From a virus (lineage: Duplodnaviria; Heunggongvirae; Uroviricota; Caudoviricetes): a stretch of 48,720 nt of DNA. The stretch lies in IMG/VR virus record IMGVR_UViG_2541047815_000004. The stretch is one strand, 5' to 3'. The notes under the pieces were generated by a model. The model was given only the letters and a program-made list of their open reading frames with translations. It had not been told where the DNA came from and made no database searches. The position numbers were made by a program, and so were the translations under genes. This document shows positions 3,306-44,307 of this stretch, one piece after another; the first letter of the stretch is position 1, and every line of letters starts with the position of its first letter.

Positions 3306-3881
3306 CTACGGCAGTGCTGGCCATTCAATATCCTGTGCAGTTGACGTATCAACACGGTTCAGCAACACCCGATACTTTTTCCAGGCTTCCAGCAATGAGG
3401 TTTCTTCCTCCGTTGCGATTTCCAGATCTACAGCATCCTGAAGTGGCGCAATATGCTCACTGGCTACCTGCATCAGGCTGTTTTTTGTTTCTTCCGCCTC
3501 TCGGATCCGGAACAGTTTTTCTGCTTCTGCATCTTTCACCCAGGCTGTGCCGTTCCACTTCTGAAACTCCCCTTCCGGCGATAACCAGGTAACATTTTCC
3601 GGTAACGGACCGAGTTCAGAAATAAATAACGCGTCCCCTGACGCTACGTCATAAACCGTTTTACCCCGATGGTCTTCATCGAGATGCCACGATGCCTTAT
3701 CACTGTTGAAAACAGCCACAAAGCCAGCAGGAATATCTGGTGGTGCAATATCGGTACTGTTTGCTGGCAGACCTGTATGAGGCGGAATATATGCGTCACC
3801 TTCACCAATAAATTCATTAGTTCCGGCCAGCAGATTATAAATTTTTATGGTCCGTGGTTGTTCACTCATTCTGAATGCCAT
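3306..3881 (-). CDS. tfaQ: Tail fibre assembly protein (Tfa), 191 aa
   Basis: Immediately downstream of stf with a 1-nt stop/start overlap; sequence typical of lambda Tfa homologues. Confidence 0.8.
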
Positions 3882-28764: not shown

Positions 28765-28971
28765 CTTCATTTTCACTTTTTTAAATCCAACGACAGACGG
28801 CTGGCATTTAAGTATTGTGAAATATTATCAAATGTAATCATCATTGATTTACAAAAGATACATTTTGCCCCGAAAGGATTCATGTCAGAAACATCAAAAG
28901 ATGATGTTCTATACTGGGAACCATGACAACACGGGCATCTAAAGTGAATATGGTTTGTAATATTGTCTACC

Positions 28972-29184
28972 TCAAAGCGCCACTACATGAACAGCGGCAG
29001 GACCTTTAGGTCCGTTCTCAATACCAAATTCAACTTCCTGATTCTCAGTTAATGTTTTGAAATCGTTGCTCTGAATTGCTGAGAAATGGACAAACACATC
29101 TTTGCTGCCATCTTTCGGCGTGATGAAACCAAAACCTTTTTCAGGGTTAAACCATTTCACTAAACCAGTCATTTTGTTAGACAT
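28972..29184 (-). CDS. cspI: Cold shock protein CspA family, 70 aa
   Basis: Cold-shock-domain motifs KWFN..KGFGFI and VHFSAI; recognised as CspI. Confidence 0.9.
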
Positions 29185-29546
29185 AATTATTACCTTTTGA
29201 AGAAATTAGCCCTTGGGCAGAATGGTCCGAAAAAAAATATCAGAGAGAAAAACCAACAAGGAAATCTCAAGAGGTACAAATAATAAAATTATAACAATGA
29301 CTGCTTCAGATAAATTTGTAACAAACCAGAACACCATTAACGCATGATTAACCACCCATAGCAAGGATTACTTTTGTAAAGAAAAACACAGCAATGAAAG
29401 AATAGCTTTATTTATTAATAAAACGTGTCATTCTGATTAAGACCTTTTATCTTGCCCTTAAGATTTCAGGAATTTTGGCTCATGGAAGAGTCCTTTTTAT
29501 TTAAATTTTACATTCCGCGATGTAAATGTTCCGATTTAATATTACC

Positions 29547-32836: not shown

Positions 32837-33117
32837 GAGATTGTGGTGCTTTTTGTGGGAGTCATCCACTTACGCACTTTGTTTTGCGATGCCAGCAGTT
32901 AGCTTCTGCTGTGAAACTATTCATGCAGCAAACCTGCACTTCACCACAATGGTTAGCATACTTTTCCTGATTAAGATTTTGCCAAATATGCTAGCCATTG
33001 TTTCATGTATTGGACCTCCTTACTTTTTATTAAAGAGATCCAATATTCACTACTCTGTCCGTATCTCTACTCAGGCATCAGCCTTCTTCGTTATCGTATA
33101 CAGACGAGCGATGAATT

Positions 33118-33333
33118 TTAATCAGTAATGATGACATTTGCTGCTGCAGGACCTTTAGCACCACTCTCTATAGAGAAGGTAACCTTTTGACCTTCAAATA
33201 AGGTTCGATAATTATCATTCTGAATCGCAGAAAAATGCACAAACACATCTTTACTACCATCAACAGGAGAAATAAAGCCGAAACCTTTATCAGCGTTAAA
33301 CCATTTTACTAAACCAGTCATTTTATTTGACAT
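33118..33333 (-). CDS. cspB: Cold shock protein CspA family, 71 aa
   Basis: Cold-shock-domain motifs; recognised as CspB. Confidence 0.9.
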
Positions 33334-33633
33334 TCTACATTCCTTAACTTGAGCCTTTCGGCATAAATGGTTTGCATAACAGAAACGACTTCGTACTTAA
33401 TTGGAGAGACTCAAAGAAGGAATAAGTGAATAACACCTGAAATGAGAACTGCTTTAGTAAACTACTTCGTATATCGTCTGTTCTTCAAACCGACGCAATC
33501 ATTAACGCATAGTTGAACATATGAAGCAATGTTTATTTTAGACATCCAGCCATCTTCAACCCCATCAAAAAACTATAGCTTTCTTCAGGAACGTGTGTAT
33601 AGTGCGCCAAGTTATCAGTATTAAGGAATTTTT

Positions 33634-36429: not shown

Positions 36430-36681
36430 TTATTCTTCTGAAAAAGCAGAAAAGCCAGCTTTTATTCCGATCTCTTTCAATACCTGTAATGAAGTGACAA
36501 ACTCACCTTCGCGCAAGATAAATCCGTCCGTGACCCGAGCATCCACAAAATTAATTAACGCAGCCCCATTCTTTCGCAAACACAGAATGCGGTAATGACT
36601 AACAATGTTTCCATTTTCAACGCACACAGCATAGAGGCCATCTTCACAAAAAATTTTACGCAGTTCTTCGATGTTCATCAT
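36430..36681 (-). CDS. rem: Rem, small prophage protein, 83 aa
   Basis: Recognised from memory as Qin Rem. Confidence 0.7.
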   Translation of the reverse strand: MMNIEELRKIFCEDGLYAVCVENGNIVSHYRILCLRKNGAALINFVDARVTDGFILREGEFVTSLQVLKEIGIKAGFSAFSEE

Positions 36682-36794
36682 CAGAATCCTTCCGGATAAT
36701 TAGCTCTCCCCTTTAAGGGACCATCCCTCTTATCCCTGCGCGCTACTTAAGTATTTTTGATTCTATTCCGGCACCGTCCAGAACTTCAAACGCG

Positions 36795-36828
36795 TTGAAA
36801 ATAAAAACAAAAACCCGCCGAAGCGGGT
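36795..36828 (-). terminator. Strong intrinsic terminator with UUCG tetraloop downstream of hokD
   Basis: Minus-strand RNA AACCCGC-UUCG-GCGGGUU followed by UUUGUUUUUAUUUU. Confidence 0.65.
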
Positions 36829-36897
36829 TAAGTGCGGGTGCGTTGAGGATGCCTGCCACATCAGAGGTGGCGAGGGATTTCTCCCTCGCCGGGTCTC

Positions 36898-37053
36898 TTA
36901 CTCCTCAGGTTCGTAAGCTGTGAAGACAGCGACCTCCGTCTGCCCGGTTCGGATTCGTACCTCGCAGAGGTCTTTCCTCGTTACCAGTGCCGTCACTATG
37001 ACGGTTAAACAGATGACGATCAGGGCGATTAACATCGCCTTTTGCTGCTTCAT
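36898..37053 (-). CDS. hokD: Hok-family type I toxin, 51 aa
   Basis: MKQQKAMLIALIVICLTVIVTALVTRKDLCEVRIRTGQTEVAVFTAYEPEE; AAGGAG Shine-Dalgarno; in-frame upstream extension in the track ORF. Confidence 0.85.
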   Translation of the reverse strand: MKQQKAMLIALIVICLTVIVTALVTRKDLCEVRIRTGQTEVAVFTAYEPEE

Positions 37054-37516
37054 AGCCTGCTTCTCCTTGCCTTTCGGCACGTAAGAGGCTAGCCTACATG
37101 TGTCTAGCATGAAATTGGCCTCAGATTAATGTTAAGCGTCTTGCAGGACGCGTAATGTTAACTGGGGCTTTTCTCTATCTGCCGTTGGTGTTCATGCCCG
37201 AGGCAGATACGTCAGTGATTCAATACAACTATTGGGTATAGTTCCTCTGATTTTTTCTGTGGAAATGGGGCACAACCACTAGTCACCACCAGCACTTCTT
37301 TTAATACGCAAAGTCCGACACAAGCTAACCTTCTAGTCCGCTTTGAGCGAGGAACGGACGTTGTATAGGTTAGTTAGCGCATCCTCATGAATTGGTGTTC
37401 CTTAAGAGATTCATAACGAAGCGTTTGCATCGGCGGTAGTGTTTATAATCGGTATGAGCCCCCGAGAGGGCTCACATTTCAAATGTATTACGAGGTTACG
37501 CTCAATTAGAAACTTC

Positions 37517-39808
37517 TCATATGTTTCCGCGATAAATCACATTCAAAGCCCGTCGAGAGTAAGACATCAGTTCACCTGGCGTGATGGGTTCTGATGATGC
37601 CTGAGGGTTCGTGTCATGATGATAGCGACCAGCATAATTGTTAATTTCATTCAACTCAGGTACCAGTGATTTAGCGAAGAATAACGGATCGCTCGGTTGT
37701 GCTTGTGCAATCTGCGCTACTACCTCTCCAAACAGATTTCCCGGTGAAATTTGCCCCGGGAAACGACGATGCAGATACCCTTCAAGAAGCGGTCTGATCG
37801 CCACCGCCGTATCGTGAAGCTGATGATGAGCACCATCGGCAAATCCGCTCACCAGACGATGATTTTTATAGTAGGGAGATTCACATTCCAGATCGATATC
37901 TAGTTTATCCAAGCTACTGAAATCACCAGCAATGTTGACAATGCGTAAGGTTGAAATGTCCTGCATTTGAGTAGCAGGTATTTTCAGGAACTCATCTCGC
38001 ATGGTACGGATAAAGAACAGGTCGTGCGCCAAGATGATTACCTGCAAGCTGCGAAGGTAAATCTGTTTAATGATGGTGATTGTGTGGTTCCTGCGATGAT
38101 TGTCCAGACTACACATCGGATCATCAATCACTACAATTTTTCTCTCAAGATCAACGTCATGAAGCAACACTGAAATAAAGAATGCGAAGGCTAGCGTCCT
38201 TTTGTCCCCTTCACTCAATGAGCTCCGGAAACTGGATTCTTCTCCCGTTAGCGAAATCTTTTCCCCTCTAAGTTCAATTGCATATTCAGACTTAGGCTCA
38301 CCGCCGCCAGCATAGTTATAATTAATTTCTGTGATGCGAAAGCTTGCACCAAACTTCATCAATAAATCATTGATGGAGGATTGATACTTTCCAAGGGTCG
38401 AGTCCATGATCGCATTGAGTTCAGCCCTCCGTGTTTCCTTCAGTTCAGAGGCAACCACTTCAGCAGTTTTAGCGGTCTGATAATCAGAGATAAAACCTAC
38501 TATCTCAGGTGATAGACGAAGTCGTGTTGCTTCATACTGGGATAATGTAACCCGCAGGGTTTCTTCATTTTTGGTTTCAAGCGCCTCTTTATAAGCCTGA
38601 ATATCCAGATTGGCAGCTTCCACGCCCGAATTAAAGATAGAAAGCTCATCATTGATTGCAGTTACTGCATCCGCGATTTCTTTTTCATAGTCGCCTTGGG
38701 TCTTTGCAAGCGGATCGTTTTTCTTGGCTTCCGTTAAGCGGTTCAGCGATGATTGAAGACCTTCCAAACTAGCTTTAATTTTATCTAAATCAGGGAGACT
38801 CACGGGCAACTGGAGACAATCTTTCCAATTTTCAGTCACTAAACCAGCCTGCTCAATCTTGCTTTCAAGTAAGGCCAGATTGAAAACGCGCATGGCAGTC
38901 GCCACAACTTTATCTAGGCCTGTGACCTGATTAAGTAAGGCTTTGTATGCAAGATTAAACCGCTCCCGGTAGTACCGGATCAGTTCAATACCCTCCAGGC
39001 TTTGCGTACAGAAAGGACAATATTCGTCTTTTATATAATCAAGGCCGTTGCTCGCCCATCGCTCAAAACCTTCGACATTGATATGGTCAATATGCGCACA
39101 GACGACCTCTTCTGCACCCGCACTGAGGCTGTCATAGCTAGCTGCAAGAGTGGAAAAAAAAGAACTGAAATCAGGAGCGTAAAGAGGTAACGAAAGATAA
39201 CCCGTACGGTTGCGGATCGTCTCTATTCTTTTGCAGAGATCCAGTTCTGATTCGACTAATGCAATTTTTTCCTGAATGTTATCTTCCTGAACAGGCTTTA
39301 TGTATTTTGCTAGAGTTACATTCCCCCGGGCTACTGTCAGCTTTTCACTTGCCAGTCTCGTAACTCTCTTGGCCTCCTCTGCCTTGTCTGATGCATCAAT
39401 AAAAGCAGCCCTCGCGGCTACCGCATCACTGCCCAGCGCAAAACTCAGCAGTCGCTTTCTATGGCTAGCGCTGATTTCACCACCTGAGTAAACATTACGG
39501 TCAACAAAATCTAGGTCGAAGACGTGCACATCTGAATACTTACCATTCCATGTATCGTTATCGTAAATCGCACGATTTCCCTGCGAAAACTGCAGATGAA
39601 TATTTTGAGGGGTCGTTTCCCCAATCGTTTTCCTGTGCCGTACAATATCTGGATTTAATTCAGTGTAGGAACGCAGAATTGACGCAAGGGTGGATTTACC
39701 ACGCCCATTATCAGCATAGACAAAGGTCATTTTTTTAAAGGACATACCAGCAGGACGGATATCCTGGAATAAACCCACGCTGGTAATTTGATGAATTCTT
39801 TCAAGCAT
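37517..39808 (-). CDS. ABC/SMC-type P-loop ATPase with coiled-coil insertion carrying a CxxC motif and an unassigned C-terminal domain, 763 aa; candidate anti-phage defence protein
   Basis: Walker A ADNGRGKST (aa 32-40); about 500 aa predicted coiled coil with CPFC at aa 264-267; signature-like LSEGDK, Walker B KIVVIDDP, D-loop SLD and H-loop ILAHD near aa 530-610; about 150-aa C-terminal domain with RPLLE and HH motifs; AAGGGA Shine-Dalgarno. Confidence 0.6.
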   Translation of the reverse strand: MLERIHQITSVGLFQDIRPAGMSFKKMTFVYADNGRGKSTLASILRSYTELNPDIVRHRKTIGETTPQNIHLQFSQGNRAIYDNDTWNGKYSDVHVFDLDFVDRNVYSGGEISASHRKRLLSFALGSDAVAARAAFIDASDKAEEAKRVTRLASEKLTVARGNVTLAKYIKPVQEDNIQEKIALVESELDLCKRIETIRNRTGYLSLPLYAPDFSSFFSTLAASYDSLSAGAEEVVCAHIDHINVEGFERWASNGLDYIKDEYCPFCTQSLEGIELIRYYRERFNLAYKALLNQVTGLDKVVATAMRVFNLALLESKIEQAGLVTENWKDCLQLPVSLPDLDKIKASLEGLQSSLNRLTEAKKNDPLAKTQGDYEKEIADAVTAINDELSIFNSGVEAANLDIQAYKEALETKNEETLRVTLSQYEATRLRLSPEIVGFISDYQTAKTAEVVASELKETRRAELNAIMDSTLGKYQSSINDLLMKFGASFRITEINYNYAGGGEPKSEYAIELRGEKISLTGEESSFRSSLSEGDKRTLAFAFFISVLLHDVDLERKIVVIDDPMCSLDNHRRNHTITIIKQIYLRSLQVIILAHDLFFIRTMRDEFLKIPATQMQDISTLRIVNIAGDFSSLDKLDIDLECESPYYKNHRLVSGFADGAHHQLHDTAVAIRPLLEGYLHRRFPGQISPGNLFGEVVAQIAQAQPSDPLFFAKSLVPELNEINNYAGRYHHDTNPQASSEPITPGELMSYSRRALNVIYRGNI

Positions 39809-42011: not shown

Positions 42012-42222
42012 TGTTCAACCGCCCCGCCCGCTTCGTCTTACGATATTCGTCATAAACCTTGGGATCATACAGAAGCTCGCCGCCAGATGCCTCCTGTAGA
42101 CGCATCGCGCGACCTTCAGGAACTAGCTCTTGCCATTGAGAAACAGCAGATGGGTCAACGCCAGCAGCTTTCGCTACTTTGGCTTTCGTACCGTAAAAAT
42201 TAATTACGTCTGATTTAAACAT
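41995..42222 (-). CDS. dicC: Cro-like (YdaS/DicC family) transcriptional regulator, about 75 aa from Met10
   Basis: C-terminal half LVPEGRAMRLQEASGGEL.YDPKVYDEYRKTKRAGRLNNENHS matches DicC as recalled; divergent from dicA. Confidence 0.75.
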   Translation of the reverse strand: MFKSDVINFYGTKAKVAKAAGVDPSAVSQWQELVPEGRAMRLQEASGGELLYDPKVYDEYRKTKRAGRLNNENHS

Positions 42223-42234
42223 CGCACCTCCAAT

Positions 42235-42250
42235 ATTGAGTTTTCTCAAT
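42235..42250. promoter_or_regulatory. Candidate operator palindrome in the dicC-dicA divergent intergenic region
   Basis: Perfect inverted repeat ATTGAG-TTTT-CTCAAT, followed by three TCAAG(G) direct repeats at 42260-42280. Confidence 0.4.
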
Positions 42251-42299
42251 GCTAATCACTCAAGGAATCTCAAGTCAAGGGTTATTAAGATATCTAAAT

Positions 42300-42707: not shown

Positions 42708-42899
42708 TCATCCCTTCACAAAATTTTAAAGCCTTACATTTCAATGTATTGGCTTTATCTTGCGCCAATGCTTGAGTTTTCTCATCAAAAAACCTTGACG
42801 AAAAATAATGAGAAAACTAAATTACCTCCATCAACACACCGCACGGTGTTCTCAGCAAACAGTTCCGCTACCCCGGCGTTAAGGGGAAATGAGGTCAGC

Positions 42900-43055
42900 A
42901 TGGATACTATCGATCTTGGCAACAGCGAATCTCTGGTATGTGGCGTGTTCCCCAACCAGGACGGCACGTTCACCGCGATGACGTATACCAAAAGCAAAAC
43001 GTTTAAAACCGAAAATGGTGCCCGTCGCTGGCTGGAAAGAAACTCAGGTGAGTGA
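42900..43055 (+). CDS. ydfA: YdfA, 51 aa
   Basis: MDTIDLGNSESLVCGVFPNQDGTFTAMTYTKSKTFKTENGARRWLERNSGE; Shine-Dalgarno GAGG. Confidence 0.7.
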   Translation: MDTIDLGNSESLVCGVFPNQDGTFTAMTYTKSKTFKTENGARRWLERNSGE

Positions 43056-43056
43056 T

Positions 43057-43632
43057 ATGGATTTCGACACAATCATGGAAAAGGCTTACGAAGAATACTT
43101 CGAAGGCCTTGCCGAAGGCGAAGAAGCTCTCAGCTTCAGTGAGTTTAAACAGGCACTCAGAATAAGAATGTGCTCTCACAATGACGCAGAGCACAAATAT
43201 GAGAAGCAAAATCAGACCGCAGAAAATTTTGTTCTGGAACCCGGAGAAACGCTTTTCAAAATTCCCGTTACGTGCCCCATTTGCGGTTTTACATCAGAAG
43301 AACTTGACGACTCCTGTAACAATCAGGAAACAACCAAGTATGTCGAAGATGATACCGAGTGCGCACGAAGAACGATTATATCCACGAGTCCAAACTCCAG
43401 GACCAATAAATCTCACTTTGAGAGGGTGATTAATCCACTCCCCCAAACCAATAAAAAAGATGCCGGAGGACAAAAAACCCAATGGAACAACGGGATATCT
43501 GTCAAAAAAAGACGTTCCATTAAAGACAAACAACGCAGCGCCAACAACTGTAAGCGCTTTATACCAGTAATCAATTTTCATGTTCTTAAGCGGATTTATA
43601 GGTGGTTGCGACATTGCTTAATGAATCCTTAA
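43057..43632 (+). CDS. ydfB: Contiguous 191-aa ORF covering the region K-12 annotates as two genes, ydfB and ydfC; contains a CPICG zinc-ribbon-like motif
   Basis: Starts MDFDTIMEKAYEEYFEGLAEG (YdfB-like) and continues through RMCSHNDAEHKYEKQNQTAENFVLEPGETLFKIPVTCPICGF (YdfC-like) without a stop. Confidence 0.55.
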   Translation: MDFDTIMEKAYEEYFEGLAEGEEALSFSEFKQALRIRMCSHNDAEHKYEKQNQTAENFVLEPGETLFKIPVTCPICGFTSEELDDSCNNQETTKYVEDDTECARRTIISTSPNSRTNKSHFERVINPLPQTNKKDAGGQKTQWNNGISVKKRRSIKDKQRSANNCKRFIPVINFHVLKRIYRWLRHCLMNP

Positions 43633-43891
43633 AACTGTGGTGATTTTAAGGATACCACCTCGCCTGACGTGGTTAAAAGCAGGCACACAACACGAAAGCG
43701 CACGGCGAAGTTCGTCTCACTGTACGGTGTCGTTAAATTTAATTCGACCGTGCGCTTCCGGTTGTGGCAACCCGCGAAATGGCGCGGCGGTAAGTATGGC
43801 GGGGTTATTCCTTCCCCGTAGAGGACACCGAGTTGTCAGGTTGACCATACGCTTAAGTGACAACCCCGCTGCAACGCCCTCTGTTATCAAT

Positions 43892-43944
43892 TTTCTGGTG
43901 ACGTTTGGCGGTATCAGTTTTACTCCGTGACTGCTCTGCCGCCG
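43892..43944 (+). ncRNA. dicF: DicF small RNA (ftsZ-targeting sRNA processed from the dicB operon transcript)
   Basis: Sequence TTTCTGGTGACGTTTGGCGGTATCAGTTTTACTCCGTGACTGCTCTGCCGCC followed by TTTTT matches DicF as recalled; between ydfC and dicB. Confidence 0.8.
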
Positions 43945-44118
43945 TTTTTAAAGTGAGTTTTGTGATGCGGTGAATGCGGCTAAGCGCACGCGGAACAGTT
44001 AAAACCAAAAACAGTGTTATGGGTGGATTCTCTGTATCCGGCGTTAATTGTTAACTGGTTAACGTCACCTGGAGGCACCAGGCACTGCATCACAAAATTC
44101 ATTGTTGAGGACGCGATA

Positions 44119-44307
44119 ATGAAAACGTTATTACCAAACGTTAATACGTCTGAAGGTTGTTTTGAAATTGGTGTCACTATCAGTAACCCTGTATTTACTG
44201 AAGATGCCATTAACAAGAGAAAACAAGAACGGGAGCTATTAAATAAAATATGCATTGTTTCAATGCTGGCTCGTTTACGTCTGATGCCAAAAGGATGTGC
44301 ACAATGA
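44119..44307 (+). CDS. dicB: Cell division inhibitor DicB, 62 aa
   Basis: MKTLLPNVNTSEGCFEIGVTISNPVFTEDAINKRKQERELLNKICIVSMLARLRLMPKGCAQ; GAGGA Shine-Dalgarno. Confidence 0.85.
   Translation: MKTLLPNVNTSEGCFEIGVTISNPVFTEDAINKRKQERELLNKICIVSMLARLRLMPKGCAQ

Follow-up and report, generated by a model that had tools for sequence, protein, structure and literature searches.

Among the closest described counterparts of the locus analysed here are the immunity regions of phage P22 and of Qin, a defective prophage of E. coli K-12. In P22 immC the repressor and cro genes are divergent, with three operators about 23-25 bp apart, and C2 and Cro use the same operators. The half-site TTAAG is read by the P22 repressor via Val33 and Gln37 (PMC5175364). 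In Qin, DicA was placed on the operator Oc by in vivo operator reporters and gel shift; when bound there it activates dicA and represses dicC, whose -10 shares 2 nt with Oc, a single base change in Oc abolishes binding, and the sequence-predicted sites Om and Oa, tested alone, were unbound (PMC3441716). DicA also represses dicBp, which is derepressed by Rem (PMC10448788). In ChIP-seq of K-12 DicC the strongest peaks lay on both sides of dicA, with the palindromic motif TT(A/C/T)G...C(G/A/T)AA (PMC11430063), and YjdC and Cnu/H-NS influence the Qin locus (PMC3441716; PMC11430063).

The window, by which we mean the whole 48,720-nt stretch of DNA that was analysed (IMG/VR record IMGVR_UViG_2541047815_000004), carries a divergent pair of dicC-like and dicA-like genes with a palindrome between them. 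We consider it highly probable that this palindrome is the OR1/Oc equivalent, the promoter-proximal and best-matching operator, in an immunity switch of the P22 type that belongs to a lambdoid E. coli prophage. An earlier note on this DNA had proposed it as a candidate operator at the immunity switch, and the comparative evidence supports that proposal: the palindrome lies at the position of Qin Oc and P22 OR1, its core is conserved in 14 lineages and it recurs at a PL-type promoter.

Genes of the immunity region

The features of the locus are listed in Table 1. The dicC-like start codon (CAT on the + strand, 42220-42222) and the dicA-like ATG (42300) are separated by 77 bp (42223-42299), and the gap of that length reported earlier between a Cro-like dicC and a repressor dicA was thereby confirmed; Pfam matches identify the two genes. 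The dicC-like protein is 70% identical to K-12 DicC, diverged in the N-terminal HTH part and identical in the C-terminal part. The dicA-like repressor is 57% identical to K-12 DicA and consists of an N-terminal HTH_3 domain like that of P22 C2 (PDB 1ADR/2R1J, E about 1e-15), followed by a short DicA-type C-terminal part; HTH_3 was its sole Pfam match, and a peptidase/RecA-cleavage domain is absent from its 135 residues. The repressor gene on the + strand and the cro-type gene on the - strand thus diverge around the palindrome as around a P22-type operator of the OR1 class.

Table 1. Genes, operators and predicted promoters of the immunity region, with positions in the window.
Feature	Coordinates	Strand	Basis or remark
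rem homologue, 83 aa	36430-36681	-	ORF
dicC-like Cro protein, 75 aa	41995-42222	-	Pfam P22_Cro, E=3e-16
Oc, candidate OR1-equivalent operator, ATTGAGTTTTCTCAAT	42235-42250	.	weight matrix, conservation, alignment with P22 OR1 and Qin Oc
Invariant core of Oc, TGAGTTTTCTCA	42237-42248		
Predicted dicC promoter (PR equivalent)	42249-42278	-	consensus scan; -35 TTGACT 42278-42273, -10 TAGCAT 42254-42249
Om, candidate OR2-equivalent operator, ACTCAAG-GAAT-CTCAAGT	42258-42275	.	alignment with P22 OR2, ACTAAAGGAATCTTTAGT
Predicted dicA promoter (PRM equivalent)	42263-42291	+	-35 AGGAAT 42263-42268, -10 TAAGAT 42286-42291
Oa, candidate OR3-equivalent operator, ATTAAGATATCTAAAT	42284-42299	.	abuts dicA ATG; 4th-best matrix match; alignment with P22 OR3, ATTTAAGATGACTTAACT
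dicA-like immunity repressor, 135 aa	42300-42707	+	Pfam HTH_3, E=2e-15
Ob1, candidate OL2-equivalent operator, CTTGAGTTTTCTCATC	42771-42786	.	upstream of -35 of dicB-operon promoter; aligns with P22 OL2
Predicted dicB-operon promoter (PL equivalent)	42795-42823	+	consensus scan; -35 TTGACG, -10 TAAATT
Ob2, candidate OL1-equivalent operator, AATGAGAAAACTAAAT	42807-42822	.	between -35 and -10, overlapping -10; aligns with P22 OL1
Repressed early-left operon ydfA-dicF-dicB (repression predicted)	42900-44307	+	
ydfA	42900-43055	+	Pfam DUF1391
DicF sRNA	43893-43944	+	Rfam DicF, 72.5 bits
dicB	44119-44307	+	DicB sequence inside ORF translation

The same immunity region is found in the functional phages mEp460_ev081 and HannyBb, and of 5,426 complete E. 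coli genomes at least 797 carry this immunity type. A rem gene is annotated at the syntenic place in mEp460_ev081, and the rem homologue of the window is likely to encode an antirepressor that inactivates the DicA-like repressor. Since that repressor is without a cleavable domain, flipping of the switch probably depends on Rem or on instability of the repressor rather than on RecA. SOS control of rem was considered and rejected: the window has 18 LexA-box-like matches where chance predicts 16, and none of them lies close to rem.

Operators and predicted promoters

The perfect palindrome noted earlier in the gap was found as described, with ATTGAG (42235-42240) and CTCAAT (42245-42250) on either side of TTTT (42241-42244), in a 6+4+6 arrangement. 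Its pentamer half-sites around a 4-bp centre have the dyad symmetry that fits a dimeric HTH protein, and the same pentamer-4-pentamer geometry is seen in the P22 consensus operator ATTTAAG-ATAT-CTTAAAT. Neither this palindrome nor a triplet of TCAAG copies beside it is significant alone, because shuffled sequence yields both often enough: perfect 6-N4-6 palindromes number 26 in the window, the chance of a 6-6 palindrome in a shuffled 77-mer is 0.027 with the spacer fixed at 4 and 0.19 with spacers of 0-10, and a 5-mer is present three times within 21 nt in 3.8% of shuffles. The significance of the palindrome lies in its recurrence, to which conservation and homology add further. When up to 3 mismatches were allowed, just three sites in the 48.7 kb matched the 16-mer, clustered in a stretch of less than 600 bp, and the two that are not Oc flank the -35 or overlap the -10 of the ydfA-dicF-dicB promoter. 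An exact word of 13 nt is common to Oc and the region downstream of dicA (a shared word of that length occurred in 1 of 3000 shuffles).

A weight matrix was built from 12 other lineages, all of other genera, with the window and its near-identical relatives left out. The best four matches in the window, at 42234, 42806, 42770 and 42283, were Oc (27.3 bits), Ob2 (25.2), Ob1 (19.7) and Oa (15.5), followed by a next-best match of 9.7 bits, and the highest shuffle maximum was 18.9; this ranking is not fully independent of the window, since the training sites were located with a pattern seeded from it. The site of the switch given in the earlier note is supported as far as the palindrome goes, and the switch is larger than described there: the OR3-equivalent site next to dicA and the two OL-type sites downstream of it had been missed.

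All promoter elements given here are consensus matches or homology transfers. The predicted dicC promoter has an 18-nt spacer and a predicted +1 at about 42242, in a layout like that of the 5'RACE-mapped Qin dicC promoter (PMC3441716) and of the annotated P22 PR. Its -10, as placed by the consensus scan, overlaps Oc by 2 nt, again as in the 5'RACE-supported Qin layout, and Oc spans about -8 to +8, centred on the predicted start. The predicted dicA promoter (17-nt spacer, predicted +1 at about 42297) would give a near-leaderless mRNA; a Shine-Dalgarno sequence was absent before the dicA ATG in every homologue compared. AGGAA and TAAGAT of this promoter are invariant in the 14 lineages, and the annotated PRM span of P22 begins and ends with hexamers identical to the predicted -35 and -10. 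The P22 RM transcript is annotated to begin 4 nt before the c2 ATG. The predicted dicB-operon promoter (17-nt spacer, predicted +1 at about 42830) is homologous to K-12 dicBp and P22 PL. For the stems in the leader of that operon, compensatory changes are described from the raw sequences only, since RNAalifold put the stems out of register and its covariation count could not be used.

Om was identified through homology only. It differs from P22 OR2 (ACTAAAG-GAAT-CTTTAGT) in the half-sites; its right half CTCAA is the consensus and its left half is degenerate. Since Om was outside the top 15 matrix matches of the window, it would be a weak site. Its CTCA (42269-42272), located between the two -35 hexamers, is invariant in the 14 lineages, and a near-palindrome, ATGAGGAATCTCAG, is present at the Om position in Enterobacter asburiae L102. 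Oa overlaps the PRM-like -10 and the predicted dicA start and, alone among the sites here, keeps one TTAAG half; TTAAGAT..CT.A of Oa is invariant in the 14 lineages. The -35 and -10 hexamers that overlap Om and Oa can account for part of the conservation of these sites, and Oa may owe some of its conservation to the promoter and not to a role as operator. Ob1 carries the 13-nt exact repeat of Oc and is conserved in 12 lineages with diverged spacers, and TGAGA.A.CTAA of Ob2 is invariant across lineages. An OL3 equivalent was not found upstream of Ob1 with the weight matrix.

Conservation and alternative readings

Homologues were searched for with the full-length repressor; a 72-aa HTH fragment gave just 16 candidates, almost all of them partial proteins. 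The 14 lineages compared (about 10 genera, with Escherichia, Buttiauxella, Salmonella, Scandinavium, Kluyvera, Enterobacter, Citrobacter, Klebsiella and Yokenella represented) have repressors of 72-100% identity with the common recognition helix SxSSISLWES. All 12 columns of the Oc core are invariant among them and the flanks diverge, and the dicB-operon promoter shows the same pattern of invariant operators amid diverging flanks. The inner 14 bp of Oc are invariant in 82 E. coli-type loci; the 80 loci of the IMG/VR scan, nearly all 96-100% identical, are informative for polymorphism within the type only and not as a deep footprint. Four other helix types carry other palindromes at the same places. 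The helix SHVSVSQWE goes with TTGTTAG-N6-CTAACAA, SSVSVFKWE with TAAC-N4-GTTA and S[HY]A[TS]ISLWE with TTRAG-type palindromes, each at the same positions, so that operator and helix covary.

The sequence of Oc is also constrained by the predicted dicC -10 and 5' UTR, with which the palindrome partly coincides. A palindrome conserved only through this overlap, with its dyad symmetry due to chance and no operator function, would agree with the abundance of such palindromes in the window and in 3-19% of shuffled 77-mers, with the 2 nt of the right arm that lie in the predicted -10 and with the position of the left arm in the predicted dicC leader. It would leave unexplained that the word of 13-14 nt recurs upstream of the -35 of another promoter, free of -10 or leader constraint, and inverted over the -10 of the dicB-operon promoter, that the motif changes with the recognition helix in heteroimmune relatives at unchanged positions, and that experiments support the homologous sites of P22 and Qin as operators; we regard it as very improbable. 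Still less credit is given to a reading in which the palindrome folds into a hairpin in the leader of the dicC mRNA and acts on translation or stability and not on transcription. A 6-bp stem with a 4-nt loop is possible just upstream of the dicC Shine-Dalgarno sequence GGAGG, but a centroid energy of -4.4 kcal/mol and a z of -0.9 relative to shuffled sequence indicate a weak fold, and only one arm would be transcribed, because the predicted start, placed by homology with the 5'RACE-mapped Qin promoter, falls inside the palindrome; the copies at the dicB-operon promoter also lie upstream of the predicted start of that promoter. The hairpin was rejected.

The three TCAAG(G) copies had been read as direct repeats. 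Their positions (42260 TCAAGG, 42270 and 42275 TCAAGG) were verified, and the low frequency of such triplets in shuffles would speak for a separate iteron-like element that binds a further regulator. As an element the triplet did not hold, since its units are not kept together: in place of repeat 1, 8 of the 14 lineages have GCAAG and two others have GACAG or ATGAG; in place of repeat 2, 7 have TCAGG and one has TCACG. Repeat 3 (GTCAAG), which is the predicted dicC promoter -35 TTGAC on the opposite strand, is alone conserved, and every immunity type has it. Om is made up of repeat 1 as its left half and repeat 2 as its right half, and the block aligns with P22 OR2 and the PR -35. This iteron reading was likewise rejected as very improbable. 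The sites might be read mainly by DicC, by a host factor or by a factor of another prophage (YjdC, H-NS/Cnu), with the DicA-like repressor bound elsewhere. The K-12 DicC ChIP-seq peaks on both sides of dicA (PMC11430063), the influence of YjdC and Cnu/H-NS on Qin and the DicC helix DPSAVSQW common to all lineages with the motif are in keeping with this. However, the Qin reporters and gel shift, with loss of binding after one base change, place DicA on the homologous Oc. The change from TTAAG to TTGAG parallels Val33Ser and Gln37Leu in the repressor helix, and the P22 operators are shared by C2 and Cro. Exclusive use by DicC or a host factor is therefore improbable, though less so than the other alternatives; joint use by DicA and DicC belongs to the operator reading that we prefer.

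The analysis shows where the sites lie, that they recur and are conserved, that they covary with the recognition helix and that they are homologous to sites of P22 and Qin; repressor binding, the order in which the sites are occupied, the start sites, and the activation and autoregulation of dicA are inferred. A dimer of the DicA-like repressor would sit on Oc with one HTH on each TTGAG half-site and the four central bp uncontacted. It would cover the start point and the edge of the dicC -10 and so block RNA polymerase, and the dicC-ydaT-replication operon would be off. Ob1 and Ob2, which lie on either side of the -35 of the ydfA-dicF-dicB promoter and over its -10, would keep that operon off in the same state. 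The half-consensus Om and the P22-like Oa would complete a three-operator array with spacings of 24 and 25 bp. Through Oa, which lies over the P22-PRM-like dicA promoter, DicA probably regulates its own gene and the Cro-like DicC probably shuts it off; DicC most likely reads the same operators in a different order of preference. The resulting map comprises five candidate operators and three predicted promoters for this immunity type. It also shows the DicA/DicC modules of the Enterobacterales to descend directly from the immC design of P22, with their specificities exchanged. It offers natural repressor/operator pairs for the study or engineering of HTH specificity, is of modest importance and opens no new question. 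The element itself is very probably of a well-understood kind, a P22-like switch that reads a DNA word different by one letter.

Comparison with Qin, lambda and P22

Gene order is shared with Qin (ydaT/ydfX-like, dicC, divergent dicA, ydfA, dicF, dicB), as are 135-aa repressors of the same type and a rem antirepressor gene. The operator is equally distant from the dicC ATG in both, overlaps the -10 (here a predicted one) by 2 nt and has two copies around the dicBp -35 and -10, and beyond the dicBp start the two sequences hardly differ. Specificity is different: DicA and DicC each have another HTH part than in Qin (heteroimmune), and Qin Oc is TTGTTAGTCATAACTAACAA (20 bp, with a 6-bp centre), of the form TTGTTAG-N6-CTAACAA, whereas ATTGAGTTTTCTCAAT stands at the homologous position here. 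Qin Oc had no match in the window, and in K-12 its 20-mer matched only at Oc itself. Qin is defective, whereas the immunity region described here is also that of functional phages.

With lambda OR/OL, where CI and Cro act, the locus shares the logic of a bistable switch and a tripartite operator of similar spacing, which in lambda is 24 and 23 bp. The lambda operators are 17-bp sites without sequence homology to those described here, and CI is RecA-cleavable. The repressor mRNA is leaderless in lambda and predicted to be near-leaderless here, so that the distance from the operator array to the repressor start codon would be shorter by about 10 bp than in lambda, and the geometry of activation may differ.

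The region aligns base for base with OR1-OR2-OR3/PR/PRM and with OL2-OL1/PL of P22, with the operators in the same order and in the same register to both start codons. The PRM-type hexamers (AGGAAT and TAAGAT) and the PR -35 (TTGACT) are identical; PL is surrounded by two operators in both, with a -35 TTGAC(C/G) and a -10 TAAATT; a near-leaderless repressor mRNA is annotated in P22 and predicted here; the repressor N-terminal domains are homologous and Cro belongs to Pfam P22_Cro. P22 differs in having OL3 (OL1-OL3) and a 216-aa C2 with a RecA-cleavable domain, and the operon after PL is here ydfA-dicF-dicB, without an N gene or an annotated nut site. The half-sites are TTAAG/CTTAA in P22 and TTGAG/CTCAA here, and Val33 and Gln37 of the recognition helix are Ser33 and Leu37 in the dicA-like repressor, in which the indirect-readout residues E44, N46 and E48 are A, R and Q. 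Because the strong sites are TTGAG and residue 33 is Ser, with a single TTAAG half in Oa, the prophage would be heteroimmune to P22. A code by which residue 33 sets half-site position 3 in all types was rejected, since the A33 and V33 DicA types misfit a one-to-one rule; the pairing is accordingly claimed for P22 versus this type only.

A bolder proposal, which we make tentatively and think unlikely, is a natural one-base switch of specificity from TTAAG to TTGAG with Val33Ser, Gln37Leu and loss of the acidic indirect-readout residues, in which the OR3 equivalent was held P22-like (TTAAG/TTTAG) by the PRM -10. If this were true, OR3-type sites would be common to otherwise heteroimmune DicA-type prophages with a near-identical Cro-like helix (xxSAVSQW), and DicC of one prophage could shut off the repressor gene of another, with cross-talk or anti-immunity between co-residents.

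Immunity genes and their neighbourhood

E. coli chromosomes matched the 911-bp region at 100% identity, and in 797 of 5,426 complete genomes the match extends over at least 80% of its length. Phages mEp460_ev081 and HannyBb matched it at 99.6% and 99.3% identity, respectively; the former is a functional temperate phage with dicAC, dicBF and rem (Ragunathan and Vanderpool, PMC10448788). The surrounding genes form a lambdoid early region. The minus strand carries, upstream of the immunity genes, a DUF968 gene (in the place of the annotated Q antiterminator gene of mEp460_ev081), rem, hok/sok and replication genes, then the ydaT-like and dicC-like genes. The plus strand carries the dicA-like gene, ydfA, the DicF sRNA and dicB, beyond which exonuclease-, xis- and int-sized ORFs were recognized by synteny with mEp460_ev081. 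Direct reading of the sequence reproduced the 77-bp gap, the palindrome and the three TCAAG copies exactly as the earlier note had described them. In Pfam, the repressor ORF had no second domain beyond the HTH families.

Coordinates of the features in the window
Feature	Position	Strand	Basis
Two cspA-thermoregulator leaders (prophage cold-shock-protein genes); IS009 RNA	28945-29330, 33102-33494; 3340-3538	-	Rfam
rem (antirepressor) homologue	36430-36681	-
Stem-loop, then T-run, just upstream of rem	about 36805-36835
hok/sok-type toxin-antitoxin pair	36898-37214	-
70-aa Hok/Mok-like ORF	36898-37110	-
sok	37048-37214	-	Rfam
763-aa AAA_13 ATPase	37517-39808	-	PADLOC PDC-S06, E = 7e-72
dicC-like, 75-aa ORF, start codon	42220-42222	-	Pfam P22_Cro, E = 3e-16
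dicC-dicA gap	42223-42299		direct reading
Oc, ATTGAG-TTTT-CTCAAT	42235-42250		direct reading; 16-mer scan, <=3 mismatches
Conserved islands 1, 2, 3	42237-42248, 42263-42279, 42285-42297		alignment of 14 intergenic regions
Promoter-like TTGACT-18-TAGCAT, dicC	42278-42249	-	consensus scan
Om, OR2 equivalent	42258-42275		alignment with P22
TCAAG copies, starts	42260, 42270, 42275		direct reading
PRM-type -35 AGGAAT, dicA	42263-42268		identity with P22 hexamer
OR2-equivalent right half CTCAA	42269-42273
Oa, OR3 equivalent	42284-42299		alignment with P22
PRM-type -10 TAAGAT, dicA	42286-42291		identity with P22 hexamer
dicA-like, 135-aa ORF, ATG	42300	+	Pfam HTH_3 and related Cro/C1 HTH families
Ob1, CTTGAGTTTTCTCATC	42771-42786		16-mer scan, <=3 mismatches
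Promoter-like TTGACG-17-TAAATT, left operon	42795-42823	+	consensus scan
Ob2, AATGAGAAAACTAAAT (+ strand reading)	42807-42822		16-mer scan, <=3 mismatches
Leader stem-loops 1 and 2	42836-42849, 42871-42886
DicF sRNA	43893-43944	+	Rfam, 72.5 bits

The PRM-type hexamers of dicA are the same as the two that delimit PRM in the P22 annotation. Because of this identity, and since the P22 RM start lies 4 nt before the c2 ATG, a dicA mRNA leader of about 3 nt is predicted; no Shine-Dalgarno sequence precedes the dicA ATG in any of the homologues compared, which fits. Ob1 and Ob2 bracket the -35 of the promoter-like site of the left (ydfA-dicF-dicB) operon and cover its -10. The two stem-loops lie directly after the predicted start of this operon. 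They were compared across homologous loci from other genomes (L001, L006, L009, L088 and L096-L105) and show what look like compensatory changes: the first is ACACCG..CGGTGT in the window and AATCAC..GTGATT in other lineages, and the second, preceded by a conserved GTTCCGC, has stems CCCC/GGGG, GCC/GGC, GCCA/TGGC or GCCCTG/CAGGGC around a conserved GCG[AT]TA loop. Rfam gave no match for them; as their position corresponds to that of P22 nutL, a nut-like or mRNA-stabilising role is possible.

The AAA_13 ATPase, which matches the PADLOC candidate defence family PDC-S06 and, less strongly, LmuB and PrrC, sits between the replication genes and hok/sok. Its position looks like an exchangeable slot for defence cargo, because mEp460_ev081 carries a different gene there. 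In the GTDB genome set, contigs identical to this prophage region or to K-12 Qin also turned up in MAGs labelled Bacillota bacterium, Veillonella parvula and Collinsella sp. (loci L002, L003 and L007); contamination during the binning of these public MAGs is almost certainly the reason.

Recurrence and conservation of the candidate operator

Taken alone, the palindrome and the repeats were barely above chance. The window holds 26 perfect 6-N4-6 palindromes; shuffled 77-mers contained a perfect palindrome with 6-bp arms with P = 0.027 (spacer fixed at 4) or 0.19 (spacers of 0-10), and a 5-mer occurred thrice in 21 nt in 3.8% of shuffles. The significance lies instead in recurrence. The 16-mer had only three matches in 48.7 kb (Oc, Ob1 and Ob2), all inside 600 bp, and an exact 13-nt word of the gap recurs downstream of the repressor gene, an equally long shared word being found in 1 of 3000 shuffles. 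With a weight matrix built from other genera only, whose training sites had been sought with a pattern derived from the window itself, the window sites at 42234, 42806, 42770 and 42283 ranked 1-4 (27.3, 25.2, 19.7 and 15.5 bits); the best score elsewhere in the window was 9.7 and the highest shuffle maximum 18.9.

Homologous loci were gathered by a one-genome-per-species scan, an IMG/VR scan, and a protein search with context look-ups. The recognition helices of the window (DicA S-x-S-S-[IV]-S-L-W-E; DicC DPSAVSQW) were present in 14 lineages with repressor identities of 72-100%: E. coli (three sublineages), Buttiauxella (two), Salmonella, Scandinavium, Kluyvera, Enterobacter (two), Citrobacter koseri, Klebsiella michiganensis, Yokenella and one further assembly. 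Three islands are invariant in all 14, namely TGAGTTTTCTCA (12 of 12 columns), AGGAA-n-CTCA-n-GTCAAG and TTAAGAT..CT.A, and the stretch from the dicC ATG to the first is scrambled. Downstream of the repressor gene, [ACT]TGAGTTTTCTCA, TTGAC and TGAGA[AT]A[AT]CTAA are kept and the spacers have diverged. Among 82 near-identical E. coli-type loci (L002, L003 and L015-L094), the inner 14 bp of the palindrome showed zero variation, and 6 of the 14 polymorphic positions of the control region fell at its edges (42233-42235 and 42250-42252), which could be operator-affinity tuning or merely relaxed constraint. Other palindromes stood at the same positions in heteroimmune relatives: TTGTTAG-N6-CTAACAA with helix SHV[ST][VI]SQWE, TAAC-N4-GTTA with SSVSVFKWE, and mixed TTGAG/TTAAG...TTAAA types with S[HY]A[TS]ISLWE.

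Conservation under promoter constraint only is disfavoured, as Ob1 sits upstream of a -35 and the motif changes with the recognition helix; nor does such constraint explain the conservation of CTCA in the right half of the OR2 equivalent (14 of 14 lineages), because CTCA lies between the two -35 hexamers. An RNA hairpin is likewise disfavoured by a weak fold (-4.4 kcal/mol, z = -0.9) and by a predicted transcription start within the palindrome. Exclusive use of the sites by DicC or a host factor would run against the Qin and P22 precedents. Recurrence, conservation, helix covariation and homology to P22 and Qin thus support the palindrome as the candidate operator of the immunity switch; the switch would lie where the earlier note placed it, with a larger operator set, Oa, Ob1 and Ob2 being added.

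Alignment with P22 and proposed switch

The N-terminal 72 residues of the repressor matched P22 C2 N-terminal domain structures (1ADR, 2R1J and 3JXB; E about 1e-15). In the annotated P22 genome, OR1-OR3, PR, PRM and the RM transcript start lie within 66 bp, with OL1-OL3 at PL. In window orientation, the P22 control region, CAT...ATTAAAGAACACTTAAAT-tatct-ACTAAAGGAATCTTTAGT-caagttt-ATTTAAGATGACTTAACT-ATG, aligns base for base with that of the window, CAT...ATTGAGTTTTCTCAAT-gctaatc-ACTCAAGGAATCTCAAGT-caagggtt-ATTAAGATATCTAAAT-ATG. On this alignment the palindrome is the putative OR1 equivalent, followed by the OR2 and OR3 equivalents; their centres lie 24 and 25 bp apart, against 23 and 25 bp in P22, and the PR -35, TTGACT, is the same in both. 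At the left promoter, the P22 counterparts of Ob1 and Ob2 in the alignment are OL2 and OL1, respectively.

The TCAAG copies did not hold up as a direct-repeat element of their own. An iteron-like role is refuted by their not being conserved as a unit: by alignment, repeats 1 and 2 are the presumptive halves of the OR2 equivalent, and repeat 3 (GTCAAG) is the dicC promoter -35, kept in every immunity type. Within the OR2 equivalent, the right half is the sole one matching the consensus of this immunity type; the left is degenerate (GCAAG in most lineages), with a near-palindrome, ATGAG-GAAT-CTCAG, in one.

The P22 repressor consensus is ATTTAAG-ATAT-CTTAAAT; Val33 packs on four thymine methyls of TTAA, Gln37 adds a contact, and readout of the four central base pairs is indirect, aided by E44, N46 and E48 (PMC5175364, PMC4267663). 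The window repressor has Ser33, Leu37, Ala44, Arg46 and Gln48; its strong half-site, TTGAG, is one base off that of P22, and the centre is an invariant T-tract. We infer that the Val-to-Ser change causes the A-to-G half-site preference. The Oa halves are P22-like (TTAAG and TTTAG) and the promoter-side half of Ob2 is CTAAA; the overlapping -10 hexamers (TAAGAT and TAAATT) would constrain these halves and also weaken them. The OR3 equivalent, ATTAAGAT..CTAAA, is near-identical in three otherwise heteroimmune DicA types (loci L006 and L105 compared) with the Cro-like helix xxSAVSQW in common, and differs in K-12 (DicC helix RLASLYSW); it could be a Cro-preferred site and a route for prophage cross-talk, or just a conserved PRM -10.

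In lysogeny, repressor dimers would occupy Oc, centred on the predicted dicC +1 (about -8 to +8), Ob2 (about -24 to -8 of the left promoter) and Ob1 (about -60 to -44), silencing the dicC-ydaT-replication and ydfA-dicF-dicB operons. By the precedents of P22, lambda and Qin, Om and Oa would be weaker; Om is perhaps filled cooperatively, and Oa, overlapping the dicA promoter, would allow DicA autorepression and shut-off by the Cro-like DicC. The switch is probably flipped, by analogy with Qin, through an antirepressor or repressor instability, because the repressor is without a cleavable domain and a rem homologue is present. No LexA box was found upstream of rem (36682-36900 region), which fits the published description of the signal inducing Rem as unknown.

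Comparison with Qin of K-12

Elements of this kind are textbook material, and both of the nearest relatives, P22 immC and Qin dicAC, have been characterised. None of the papers found to mention mEp460 describes its operators, so TTGAG-N4-CTCAA as a specificity, and the map of five sites, appear to be undescribed. In Qin, an in vivo operator-reporter assay and gel shift showed that DicA binds a 20-bp inverted repeat, Oc (TTGTTAGTCATAACTAACAA), and that substituting one base is enough to abolish this; Oc overlaps the -10 of the dicC promoter, which was mapped by 5'RACE (Yun et al., PMC3441716). Bound at Oc, DicA represses dicC, and transcription of dicA requires DicA at this site; the sequence-predicted Om and Oa showed no DicA binding when alone (PMC3441716). 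The strongest DicC ChIP-seq peaks flank dicA on both sides (PMC11430063). The left-operon counterpart in K-12, dicBp, is also repressed by DicA.

K-12 Oc begins 15 nt away from the dicC ATG, against 13 nt for the window palindrome; in both, the dicC -10 (predicted in the window) overlaps the operator by 2 nt. At dicBp, GTTAG...CATAC stands upstream of TTGACC, and GTTAG...GCTAAT lies between -35 and -10; the window sequences in the same places are TTGAG...CTCAT and ATGAG...CTAAAT, and downstream of these operators the two regions are nearly identical. The repressors share 57% identity overall, with a conserved C-terminal half, and the DicC proteins 70%, diverging over the first 30 residues and identical thereafter. 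The differences lie precisely in the HTH parts, a heteroimmune exchange of specificity inside one architecture.
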